Notes: generated by a model from the letters alone, not told the origin. A stretch of 32,000 bases of DNA from an uncultured Bacteroidota bacterium (GCA_913055825.1 CAJXKB010000017.1:1-32000), one strand, 5' to 3'; counted from the first letter of the stretch, positions 25,700-32,000 are shown. Numbers and translations are program-made.

Positions 25700-26317
25700 C
25701 TAAAGTGGCAGTACAAAACCGGGTTTCAGCAATACTTTAATTATCTCATCCAACGACAAAATACTATGAGGTTTTGCCAACCTAATGGCGGCAGCAGGCA
25801 TGACCGGACTTTCAGCATCTTCGGGATCCTGCACAATTGTATAACCACCTGCATTTTTAACAGCACGTAAACCCGCTGCCCCATCAGCATTGGCACCGGT
25901 AAGTACAATGCCAATCAGCTGTTCGCCAAAAGTATCAGCTGCCGTCTCAAAAAGCACATCAATCGAAGGCCTCGAGTAGTTCACTTTATTATCTACCGAT
26001 AACGATATAGTTTCATCTGCTTCAACCATCATGTGATAATCAGGTGGTGCTACGTAAACCGTGCCGGGAACAACGACTTCCTTTTCATCCGCCTCTTTCA
26101 CCTTAATGGATGAGGCCATATTTAGCATGGTGGTCATATAATTATCAGAATGCGGACTCATATGTTGCACAACGAGCACTGCACAGGGATAGTCGGCCGG
26201 CAAAGCAGGCAACAGCCTCTTCAAAGCGTGCAAACCGCCGGAAGAAGCCCCTATAACAATAGCCCGATATGTTGTTTGTTTATTCAATTTTCTTTTTAAA
26301 TATTTTTTCTTTGGCAT
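25700..26317 (-). CDS. cheB: CheB-type protein-glutamate methylesterase/glutaminase, catalytic domain only
   Basis: IVIGASSGG, VVQHM, GTVYVAPPDYH, RPSIDVLF and VLTGANADG strings, with no receiver domain. I prefer the ATG at 26317 (MPKKKYLKRK) over the ORF-track start at 26461, which lies deep inside cheR. Confidence 0.88.
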   Translation of the reverse strand: MPKKKYLKRKLNKQTTYRAIVIGASSGGLHALKRLLPALPADYPCAVLVVQHMSPHSDNYMTTMLNMASSIKVKEADEKEVVVPGTVYVAPPDYHMMVEADETISLSVDNKVNYSRPSIDVLFETAADTFGEQLIGIVLTGANADGAAGLRAVKNAGGYTIVQDPEDAESPVMPAAAIRLAKPHSILSLDEIIKVLLKPGFVLPL

Positions 26318-27119
26318 CAACAGTTTTATATCGGCCGTCAAGGGACGAAAACTGTAATGTCTCTTTAGAACCCAACCCAATATAACCACCGGGCAAAATA
26401 CTTTCATCGAAAATATCCAACACCTTATTTTGTAATTTGCGATTAAAATAAATAAGGACATTCCGGCAAATTACCATATTGACTTCTGCAAAAACCGCAT
26501 CCGTAACCAGGTTATGGACAGCAAAAACAATTTGCTTTTTAAGTTCCGGATCAAAAATTACAGAATCATTACTGGCATGATAATAATTTGAAAATGAATG
26601 CTTCCCGCCCGCTTGTTGATAATTGGCTGTATATTCTTTAATATATTTTATGGGATAAACACCCGTTTTGGCCTTTTGGATTACGTCGTGATTAAAATCG
26701 GTAGCATATATTTGTGTGCGCTCATACAATCCTTCCTCCTTCAACAAAATAGCAAATGAATAAACCTCTTCACCACTCGAACAGCCAGCAATCCATATTT
26801 TCAAAAACGGATAAGTTTTCAAAAGCGGAATTACATTTTGTCGCATACTTTTATAAAAATACGGATTTCGAAACATCTCGGTCACATTGATGCTTAAGTC
26901 ACGTATCAATTTCTCAAAGCAAAGTGGGTCGTGCAGAATCTTGTGTTGCAACTCACTAATACTGGACAATCCGCTTTGCATCAACCGGTGGATGACCCTT
27001 CGTTTGATGTGGGCACGGCTGTAATCCCTGAAATCGTAACCGTATTGCAGATACATGGCCTGCAAGAGCAATTCCAGTTCAATATTTTCGGTAGGTGTAG
27101 GCTGCTGATGCTCCATCAA
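26280..27119 (-). CDS. cheR: CheR-type protein-glutamate O-methyltransferase
   Basis: N-terminal helical domain (YGYDFRDYSRAHIKRRV), TEMFRNP, and SAM-binding IWIAGCSSGEEVYSFAILL. The TTG at 27119 is immediately followed by ATG 27116, so either could be the start. Confidence 0.9.
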   Translation of the reverse strand: MMEHQQPTPTENIELELLLQAMYLQYGYDFRDYSRAHIKRRVIHRLMQSGLSSISELQHKILHDPLCFEKLIRDLSINVTEMFRNPYFYKSMRQNVIPLLKTYPFLKIWIAGCSSGEEVYSFAILLKEEGLYERTQIYATDFNHDVIQKAKTGVYPIKYIKEYTANYQQAGGKHSFSNYYHASNDSVIFDPELKKQIVFAVHNLVTDAVFAEVNMVICRNVLIYFNRKLQNKVLDIFDESILPGGYIGLGSKETLQFSSLDGRYKTVDAKEKIFKKKIE

Positions 27120-27148
27120 TCAATTCAATTTATCCTGATGATCGCTCA

Positions 27149-30100: not shown

Positions 30101-31543
30101 TGCAATTTGGTTGGCCTGCGTTACCACCGAGCGGAAACTTTCTACCATTTTATTTATCGAACGGGCCAGCACATCCTCGTCACTTCTCTCCTCAACCGTT
30201 TCACTAAAATCGCCTTTGGCTACCAATCGAGCTACCGACGAATAGGTTTTTAACGCGCCTACCAGTTTATTGAAAGTGTCTTTCATTTCCCCAATCTCAT
30301 TTTGAGGGGCTTTAATGTTTTTCTCCGTTAAATATCCGGTAGATATCTGTTTTCCCCATGATGATAATGCCTTTATGGGATTTACAAACCATCGGGTAAC
30401 CAAAATTGAAATAAATACAACAATCAAAATTGTAATTAAAAAGCTTAACTTAACAATGTCCGACAATTTACGGGCATAAGCAAAAGCCTCGGTATGCGAA
30501 ATTTCTTCTATCAGGGCCCAATGGACACCATATTTTTCCAACTCCGTAAGATTCCGGTAAATACCTAACACCCAGGTTCCTTTTCCGTCCGCGTCATACG
30601 TGGTTACCCTTTCTTCATCCAGCTCATTAGTTTTCAGATAGGCCCTGTCATCACGATGCTGAAGGTAATCGCGCCAGGAAAGTGTTTTTTTATTGACAAT
30701 CTTTTTTTCAAGTATGTCGGAGGCACTTCCAAAGCGGGTAGCCGATCTCAAAAACAGATCTTCACCAATCAAAAAAGCCTGGCCTGTTTTCCCGTAGCCG
30801 GCTTCCTGCTGCAAAATCTCATTGATACTTTTCATGGTTATTTGCAATACGAACATGCCCATTTGTTTCCCCTCTTTATCCGCAACAGGGCGAACAAAAA
30901 ATCCTGAGATAATCCCTAAGCTTGGTTCATAATGTTCCAAATCTGAAAACAGCATTTTATGTTCATTCATACTTTGCCTCACCGTTCGTGCAAATCGCGT
31001 GTTTCTCAGGTCGCCCCGAAAAACACTTTCGCCCAAATCAGCTTCGTGGCGTGTGCTAAACAAAATATTCCCCTTATTATCGAGAAACAGGAAATCATAA
31101 AATCCCTGAAGTTTGAGTGATGGCCCTATTTCAGGTAGTAAAGGTGCTGTAATTTTTTTCCATCCGGCGGATTCAACATACGATTTCGCATCAAGCCCAC
31201 TGCGGTGAAAATCTTGCAACAGCTGCTCAAACTGCGCCCTTTTATGATTAGAGCCGGAGGTAATTTCCAGAAAATCGCTGGCTTTATTAAAAAATGTATA
31301 AATATATTTTAAACGGAGCTGAGAAGAAGAATTCAGCGATTTTTCAGCCACAATGGTCAAACCCTGGTAGGCATTCAGGAAATTAATAAAACTTACCGCT
31401 GCCAGCGGGATAAATGAAATAGCAAGGAACCAGATAAACAGTGATTTACCAACACCTATATTTCTCCATGTCCGTAATGAATATTTTAGCCGCTCCCATT
31501 TATTTGCTTCGTTATAATCAATAAAATCTTGTTTCTCGCTCAT
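27149..31543 (-). CDS. Hybrid sensor histidine kinase: TM-Cache-like-TM-HAMP repeats-GAF-coiled coil-HisKA-HATPase-REC-REC-REC
   Basis: Two TM segments (aa about 33-57 and about 363-383) bracket a roughly 300-aa periplasmic domain. HAMP-like repeats and a GAF domain follow. H-box SHELRTPLN (His codon 29174-29176). ATPase boxes NLISNAIKFT, DTGIGI and GGTGLGLSI. Three complete receivers: IIEDDE/ILDMGLP/LTKP, IVEDEE/ILDLGLK/VLKG and VVDDDM/LMDIMMP/LSKP. Confidence 0.95.
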   Translation of the reverse strand: MSEKQDFIDYNEANKWERLKYSLRTWRNIGVGKSLFIWFLAISFIPLAAVSFINFLNAYQGLTIVAEKSLNSSSQLRLKYIYTFFNKASDFLEITSGSNHKRAQFEQLLQDFHRSGLDAKSYVESAGWKKITAPLLPEIGPSLKLQGFYDFLFLDNKGNILFSTRHEADLGESVFRGDLRNTRFARTVRQSMNEHKMLFSDLEHYEPSLGIISGFFVRPVADKEGKQMGMFVLQITMKSINEILQQEAGYGKTGQAFLIGEDLFLRSATRFGSASDILEKKIVNKKTLSWRDYLQHRDDRAYLKTNELDEERVTTYDADGKGTWVLGIYRNLTELEKYGVHWALIEEISHTEAFAYARKLSDIVKLSFLITILIVVFISILVTRWFVNPIKALSSWGKQISTGYLTEKNIKAPQNEIGEMKDTFNKLVGALKTYSSVARLVAKGDFSETVEERSDEDVLARSINKMVESFRSVVTQANQIAEGDYDTLIKPRSENDSLGKALYKMTDTLRKNNEKFKNEDWLKTGLNELDAVLKGKNDINGLAQGIISFFTHYLGAQLGLLYLYDTEKEALKLTSSYAISADDPQIKQSYKPGEGLVGQAFKDKKRIMVSAKDNNVLPAIDLGIGKKQAGSLALIPFSFEDRVIGLMEIGSVNTFTELQTQFLDLAVQDLALAVITLQSHLKVKELLAQTQEQAKILEVQQEELRQANEELKEQTEALKRSEENLQTQQEELKVTNEELEERTKALEIQRDAIKRKNKEIEEARKEIENKARDLEQTNRYKSEFLANMSHELRTPLNSIIVLSQLLDENKNNHLSEKEKEFARTINSSGIDLLNLINDILDLSKVESGKTEVNVERVYLDDLATYVENSFKPIVEGKGLALKVERTADLPEYMETDMQKVQQVIKNLISNAIKFTAQGSITLRIRKETDQKKIKELSIQSEEVIAISVADTGIGIPKDKQGVIFEAFKQADGTTSRKYGGTGLGLSISRSFSRLLGGAMELKSEENKGSEFILYLPLKYTPADKKEENKPKKTEKKKKESVKASNKKSTPVQYPDSPENDTPTVKDDRYLLNEKDKKVLIIEDDEKFADVLLSLAHEHNFKVIIALDGETGFYHADYYQPDAIILDMGLPGIDGVEVMDLLKEDVKTRAIPVHVISARDFDIDLLKKGAIGYLTKPVTKEQIDEVFNTIEQVVNKNLKKLLIVEDEEITRKSIEQLLKDESVDISSVENGGDAIELLTKEDFDCMILDLGLKDMSGFEVLERIHKNEKARKVPVVIYTSHELSKEEDEQLKKYARSIVLKGARSFERLLDETTLFLHQVDEKFTGVKKKMVDKMHGGENILKDKTVLVVDDDMRNVFALSSVLESYDMNVIVGKNGKEGIEKLHEHEEIDLVLMDIMMPEMDGYEAMQLIRKEKKYKNLPIIALTAKAMKGDREKCLTAGANEYLSKPVEKEKLISLLRVWLYR

Positions 31544-31565
31544 TTATTCAGATTTTAGGCAAAAA

Positions 31566-32000
31566 TTATTTATTATATTTTTCCACAACACTATAAAGTT
31601 CTTTAGGATTAACCGGTTTTGAGAGGTAATGGTCCATTCCTGCCGCCAGACACTTTTCTTTATCACCTTTCATGGCATGGGCTGTCATAGCCACAATGGG
31701 AATGTGGGTATGCAGGTTTTCTTCCAATTTACGTATCATTCTCGTGGCTTCCAGGCCGTCCATCACAGGCATTTGAACATCCATCAGGATCATAAAAAAA
31801 TTCCGGGGATTTTGAGAGAATAATTCAACCGCCACTTTACCGTTTTCAGCATTACGTACTTTTAATCCTTTACGCTCGAGGAACTGAGTAATTACTTTTC
31901 GATTAATCAATTGATCTTCGGCTACTAATATTTCGCCCGGCAAGTCAAATGAAAGGGTTGTTTGCTCAGGATGCTGACTTTGCGATTTTGCCTTTTGTGT
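31566..32000 (-). CDS. CheY-like receiver domain, probably the C-terminus of a larger protein running off the window
   Basis: VAEDQLIN, ILMDVQMPVMDG, VAMTAHA and YLSKP strings. The frame stays open upstream of the TTG at 31943 through to nt 32000 (TQKAKSQSQHPEQTTLSFDLPGE), so the 5' end is probably outside the window. The stop lies 22 nt before the hybrid kinase start. Confidence 0.8.
   Translation of the reverse strand, partial: TQKAKSQSQHPEQTTLSFDLPGEILVAEDQLINRKVITQFLERKGLKVRNAENGKVAVELFSQNPRNFFMILMDVQMPVMDGLEATRMIRKLEENLHTHIPIVAMTAHAMKGDKEKCLAAGMDHYLSKPVNPKELYSVVEKYNK

Follow-up and report, generated by a model that had tools for sequence, protein, structure and literature searches.

The window examined here, a 32,000-nucleotide stretch from an uncultured Bacteroidota bacterium (GCA_913055825.1 CAJXKB010000017.1:1-32000), belongs to contig C17 of an assembly that totals 3.1 Mb and is 97% complete, and carries in its last 6.3 kb an operon in which the chemotaxis-type enzymes CheR and CheB accompany a giant hybrid histidine kinase. 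Sequence comparison identifies this operon as one copy of the cfcABCD/bms-type signaling cassette, and the arrangement is thus not new. The kinase core is homologous to Pseudomonas CfcA, the gene set is conserved in three different orders and is separate from the chemotaxis-like cluster of the same genome, and the catalytic residues of the enzymes are intact. The kinase also contains a conserved ladder of glutamate pairs, and that CheR and CheB of the cassette modify this ladder is, on balance, probable.

In bacterial chemotaxis, reversible glutamate methylation serves as the textbook memory device, and it is regarded as a property of chemoreceptors. The cassette occurs in at least a dozen phyla and mostly in genomes without a chemoreceptor, which suggests that the same chemistry tunes ordinary sensor kinases; if true, two-component pathways would possess a memory or adaptation of the type known from methyl-accepting chemotaxis proteins (MCPs) in bacteria that have no chemoreceptor arrays. 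The chances are evenly poised that the cassette represents a class of methyl-accepting histidine kinases, in which a constitutively active, receiver-less CheB together with CheR would provide such memory or adaptation. The cassette has already been named in Pseudomonas, and the window contributes a single Bacteroidota example, which differs in sensor and gene order, and adds no new principle by itself.

The operon and its relatives

The operon consists of four co-directional genes on the minus strand, called as open reading frames (ORFs) and translated. The genes and junctions described in an earlier note on this DNA were reproduced, with a 22-nt gap between the first two genes, a 29-nt gap between the big kinase and CheR, and a 38-nt overlap of CheR and CheB. 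Only the C-terminal receiver (REC) of the first gene falls in the window (31566..32000, minus strand; ORF, Pfam, and contig extension). That this receiver is the tail of another protein had been suspected, and the contig extended past the window contains the entire gene (C17 31566..33620), which encodes a complete 684-aa REC-HisKA-HATPase-REC-REC kinase, on sequence grounds a CfcD-like partner. The big kinase (27149..31543, minus strand; ORF, Pfam, and alignment) is a 1464-aa membrane hybrid histidine kinase that joins a CfcA/BmsA-type core to a different sensor module. It is followed by the CheR methyltransferase (26280..27119, minus strand; Pfam, alignment, and tree), with CheR_N and S-adenosylmethionine (SAM) domains, and by CheB (25700..26317, minus strand; Pfam and alignment), a catalytic domain of 205 aa that starts with MPKKK. 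As the earlier note had stated, CheB has no regulatory receiver; Pfam assigns CheB_methylest (5.6e-61) and detects no receiver.

Both enzymes appear to be active. In an alignment with Salmonella CheB, the triad S25/H52/D145 of the window CheB corresponds to Ser164/His190/Asp286, and CheR, which Pfam resolves into CheR_N and CheR, can be aligned with CheRs of solved structure.

The architecture assigned earlier to the big kinase largely holds. Pfam recognizes HAMP, GAF, HisKA, HATPase_c, and three Response_reg stretches, and finds neither an Hpt nor a CHASE3 domain; the label Cache is tentative, as the dCache_1 match scores 25.7 bits vs the 45-bit cut-off. All segments that follow lie on the minus strand. 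The Cache-like region (residues ~60-365; 30449..31366), delimited by the sub-threshold dCache_1 match and by hydrophobic stretches in the translation, would be extracytoplasmic and lie between two predicted membrane helices. Next comes the HAMP domain detected by Pfam (residues 381-432), from which two HAMP-like repeats probably continue as far as residue ~537 (29933..30403 in all), and then the GAF domain (residues 538-674; 29522..29932; Pfam). The catalytic core of HisKA, with phospho-His H790, and HATPase_c occupies 28490..29203 (Pfam and alignment), and the three receivers (27170..28312; Pfam) retain their acceptor Asp residues, D1126, D1248, and D1395 by alignment.

The P. putida cfcABCDE cluster comprises the CHASE3/GAF hybrid kinase CfcA and the CheR/CheB pair CfcB/CfcC (PMC4951495), together with the REC-kinase CfcD, and has CfcR as its output. 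The same neighborhood surrounds the BmsA orthologue in PMC8175716, where the mechanism is called unresolved; equivalent clusters are the BmsA locus of P. alkylphenolica and genes 3082-3079 of P. brassicacearum. Published cfcA primers (PMC4951495) map colinearly to the putida-group loci that contain the ladder, at the reported distance of 910 bp and with 0-3 mismatches, which identifies the putida-group kinase as cfcA. This kinase has the architecture CHASE3-GAF-HisKA-HATPase-3xREC, and its neighbors are CheR, a REC-less CheB, and, downstream, a 408-aa REC-HK. Residues 510-1462 of the window kinase align with the putida-group CfcA orthologue over 957 aa, with an identity of 41% (E = 0).

Like its Pseudomonas counterpart, the window cluster combines a kinase made of GAF, Glu-ladder coiled coil, HisKA, HATPase, and three receivers with a cassette-clade CheR, a receiver-less CheB, and a REC-kinase partner, and includes no MCP, CheA, or CheW. 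The two differ in their sensors, CHASE3 in Pseudomonas and a Cache-like region with extra HAMP repeats in the window; as the sensor module varies across the family, CHASE3 is probably not a core feature. They differ also in gene order, which is partner kinase, big kinase, CheR, and CheB in the window but kinase, CheR, CheB, and partner in Pseudomonas, and in the partner itself, which in the window carries two extra C-terminal receivers. The assembly, which is 97% complete, encodes no GGDEF domain, so that a diguanylate cyclase output of the CfcR type (REC-GGDEF-EAL) is lacking.

In the CheR tree all 40 cassette CheRs, including those of the window and of Pseudomonas, fall into one clade with a support of 97, from which the CheR of the genome's own MCP cluster is separated by a split with a support of 99. 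By this tree the window CheR is a member of a cassette-specific (CfcB-type) clade that spans many phyla. Cassette CheRs from separate phyla intermingle on short branches (for example, Leptospira within a Bacteroidota group, and Clostridium with Desulfocapsa), which suggests horizontal spread of the whole cassette. The backbone of the CheB tree is unresolved, and a single origin of the cassette CheBs is therefore not claimed. The CheB and CheR domains of CheB-CheR fusion proteins form clades separate from the cassette enzymes.

The survey of the gene set covered the source genome and a sample of 150 others from its class, each of them 90% complete or better. A CheB domain is encoded in 49 of these genomes, MCPsignal exceeds the cut-off in only 8, and 43 of the CheB-bearing genomes have no MCP. 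By length, three groups of CheB reading frames can be told apart: about 190-250 aa, without receiver; about 340-390 aa, with receiver; and over 900 aa. All three annotated members of the middle group (G158, G018, and G114) are REC-CheB proteins, those of G158 and G018 in MCP clusters, and the long ones are CheB-CheR fusion proteins wherever annotated (7/7), a type that is frequent in this class. Around the short CheBs (31 loci), CheR is adjacent in 27, and a 1000-1400-aa GAF hybrid kinase of the ladder type is present in 15, usually with a REC-kinase. Three gene orders recur (CheR-CheB-kinase-partner, partner-kinase-(REC)-CheR-CheB, and kinase-CheR-CheB-partner), and genes that stay together despite a changed order point to a functional unit. 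The survey supports an assignment of the CheR/CheB pair to kinases rather than to a chemoreceptor.

The glutamate-pair ladder as a candidate methylation target

The ladder occupies residues ~686-745 of the big kinase (29309..29488, minus strand; alignment and profile search), between GAF and the helix of the dimerization and histidine phosphotransfer (DHp) domain, and its heptad phase continues unbroken into that helix. It consists of the rungs QQEEL 700-704, NEEL 708-711, QQEEL 728-732, and NEEL 736-739, which precede the phospho-His by 50-100 residues. The core of the coiled coil has Leu at one position and Asn, Thr, or Gln at the other, and the Glu-Glu pairs are exposed, directly before the Leu. 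Within the source genome the ladder profile matches the gene of the big kinase alone. Across the cassette kinases the ladder lies 35-100 residues ahead of the phospho-His, with the consensus LLEETQxQSEELQxQQEELxQxNEELEEQTQ...QQEELxxxNEELEE. The QQEEL, N..EL, and Leu positions are invariant in an alignment of 16 kinases seeded by CheB, a set chosen without use of the ladder, so that the result is not circular.

A link between the enzymes and this motif is also provided by domain fusion. CheB-CheR fusion proteins, annotated as 'histidine kinase with CheB and CheR activity', contain NEELQSxNEELQS heptads in cis about 200 residues past the CheR domain, which are weaker matches to the ladder profile. 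They resemble the cassette in that a NEEL-type ladder is tied to CheB and CheR; unlike in the window, enzymes and ladder are held in one polypeptide with a PAS-like spacer.

A search with the ladder only, seeded by an alignment of 8 ladder sequences and restricted to one genome per species, yielded 80 loci, which represent at least 12 phyla, among them Bacteroidota, Bacillota, Thermodesulfobacteriota, Pseudomonadota, Spirochaetota, Actinomycetota, Acidobacteriota, Nitrospirota, Nitrospinota, Calditrichota, and Myxococcota. The nearest ladder matches are in metagenome-assembled genomes of Lentimicrobiaceae. Among the 50 assessable loci, with at least 2.5 kb on each side of the kinase, CheR is found in 49 and CheR plus CheB in 43, counts that overstate independence because the loci are inter-related and were partly selected by the ladder itself. 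Every CheB of the ladder-seeded loci (55/55) is without a receiver, and an MCP/CheA/CheW-like gene is nearby in only 4 of the 80.

The conserved Glu-pair ladder of the big kinase is therefore, as judged from conservation and gene linkage, likely to be the methylation target. The earlier note had pointed to the HAMP/coiled-coil segment of the kinase; a coiled-coil substrate is credible given the ladder, which is however placed between GAF and DHp and not in HAMP. Candidate methyl-accepting residues are E703, E710, E731, and E738, and candidate deamidation sites are Q700/701 and Q728/729. With sites named residue by residue and P. putida cfcABCD as a genetic model, the question of the substrate of such 'orphan' CheR/CheB pairs becomes directly testable. 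The parallel with MCP adaptation (E. coli/Salmonella Tar and Tsr) lies in the shared pair of enzyme families, whose catalytic residues are conserved, and in a candidate substrate that is a long coiled coil with heptad-spaced Glx pairs and Gln next to Glu. By contrast with the canonical chemotaxis module, the window CheB has no N-terminal receiver and the operon has no MCP signaling domain, CheA, or CheW. Unlike MCP sites, the ladder is without small-residue flanks, and its helix runs straight into DHp.

In the proposed mechanism, CheR would methylate the second Glu of the solvent-exposed pairs on the signaling helix just N-terminal of DHp, and CheB would strip the methyl groups and may deamidate neighboring Gln residues. 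The change of charge on a coiled coil made marginal by Asn, Thr, or Gln at one core position, with Leu at the other, could then shift the balance between the on and off states of the kinase and so provide gain control or adaptation. Such tuning of the kinase by a CheR/CheB step on the ladder Glu residues is inferred from the sequences. Feedback without a CheB receiver might arise if access of the enzymes to the helix depended on its conformation, as in the Barkai-Leibler scheme for MCPs. It had been suggested instead that one of the kinase receivers replaces that of CheB; no evidence was found for this, three receivers being the norm of the family and present also in Pseudomonas CfcA. Phosphoryl groups would pass via the three receivers to the partner kinase's N-terminal receiver, to a stand-alone HPt protein, or to both; such HPt proteins are encoded elsewhere in the genome.

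Besides the limited independence of the ladder-seeded loci, several observations weigh against methylation of the ladder. Neither kinase of the operon matches the MCP site consensus [ASTG][ASTG]xx[EQ][EQ]xx[ASTG][ASTG]. The number of full Glu-Glu rungs shows no correspondence with whether CheR/CheB are present: one subfamily linked to the enzymes has the pair at only 1-2 of 4 rungs, and the QQEEL rung is kept in 3 of 4 kinases of a lineage without adjacent CheR/CheB, which represents one family and a single event. In Bacteroidia, receiver-less CheR/CheB pairs also lie beside GAF-PAS-SpoIIE (PP2C) phosphatases without a ladder kinase (L065 6931-13347, L071 6669-11285, and L083 7391-9217), in genomes that show no MCP, and hence these enzymes have other clients. 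An unpublished statement in PMC4951495 has P. putida mutants in other cfc genes staying crinkly, which indicates that CheR/CheB are not required for kinase output under the conditions used. Full-text searches of the literature found no experiment on CheR methylation of any such kinase.

In an explanation that is unlikely, if by no means negligible, CheR and CheB modify another protein (the REC-kinase partner, a receiver domain, or an unlinked protein) and the ladder serves only as a conserved signaling helix or docking surface. In its favor, the ladder fails to match the MCP consensus and persists in kinases of genomes without CheR/CheB (G064 and G102); the REC-kinase partner co-occurs in most cassettes, and a reported non-MCP substrate of CheR is the response regulator PhoP (PMC8546571). 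Against it stand the CheB-CheR fusions, which keep the NEEL heptads in cis even where the kinase is a separate gene, and the loci with CheR only (L081, L082, and L087), which still adjoin ladder kinases. Moreover, a coiled coil that has no binding partner seldom keeps its exposed b and c positions invariant from phylum to phylum.

The chemotaxis-like cluster of the source genome

The 32 kb contain no MCP, CheA, or CheW, as had been stated, but this does not extend to the whole genome, where all MCPsignal and CheW matches fall on contig C65 and none on the window's contig. Contig C65 (1-7028, outside the window) encodes STAS, REC, CheA, CheW, MCP, CheR, and a small kinase, and ends 176 nt past the latter. 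An improbable alternative is that the window pair serves this single MCP, with the window CheB as its esterase. It is favored by the absence of CheB from the REC-CheA-CheW-MCP-CheR-HK cluster, by the window CheB being the only CheB domain of the assembly, and by two matches of the C65 MCP to the methylation-site consensus. In three congeners, one of them with a closed genome, a REC-CheB is nevertheless located at exactly the point where C65 ends, and each encodes a short CheB at another place besides; that only one CheB is seen in the present assembly is thus most likely due to a gap. An orthologue of the congener REC-CheB is absent from the assembly, where its best match is the window CheB with only 39% identity.

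The MCP cluster on C65 is, from this comparison, most likely self-sufficient: it includes a CheR and, in congeners, also a REC-CheB, so that it has no need of the window CheR and CheB and does not account for them. The different clades of the two CheRs and the 43 of 49 CheB-bearing genomes without MCP also speak against a shared role, and a chemotaxis function has been excluded for the Pseudomonas pair (Garcia-Fontana 2013, as cited in PMC4951495). The window CheB as the genome's sole CheB, serving the MCP, was accordingly rejected as the principal interpretation, because congeners carry a REC-CheB where C65 stops.

It is very improbable that CheR and CheB perform no methylation chemistry in the cassette and are relics or non-catalytic adaptors: PMC4951495 reports no phenotype for Pseudomonas cfcB/cfcC mutants in a crinkly-colony assay, but the CheB triad is intact, both CheR domains score strongly, and at least 12 phyla have kept the pair in overlapping or tightly spaced genes.

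A third CheR (277 aa) of the source genome is encoded on contig C101 (3077-9086, outside the window), where it overlaps the start of a 1018-aa kinase and is not accompanied by CheB. The kinase has the architecture 4HB_MCP-HAMP-GAF-HisKA-HATPase-REC-REC, with single-Glu heptads (SEL/KEL/AEL/TEL) in the helix ahead of the His, and is followed by a REC-PAS-GAF-PAS protein. The same arrangement of CheR and kinase is present in another family of the class (locus L086), and the C101 CheR falls outside the cassette clade.

Variants and neighboring genes

The composition of the cassette varies in the placement of additional receivers. In Alcanivorax and relatives (L126, L127, L133, and L134), the gene of a 160-aa single-domain receiver lies between CheR and CheB. 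In several Bacteroidia variants a receiver gene separates the kinase from CheR. Some variants of the cassette have a receiver fused after CheB. Such inserted or fused receivers make phospho-control of CheR/CheB in trans conceivable.

Among the loci linked to SpoIIE phosphatases, one protein is a CheB-REC-SpoIIE fusion. At L065 (6931-8727), a HAMP-GAF protein ends in a ladder of EE(M/L) heptads and has no output domain.

Next to the operon, on the plus strand of the window, a 1389-aa ORF (21526-25695) without Pfam match carries a hydrophobic segment at its N terminus. The ORF converges on CheB, and 4 nt separate its end from the CheB stop.

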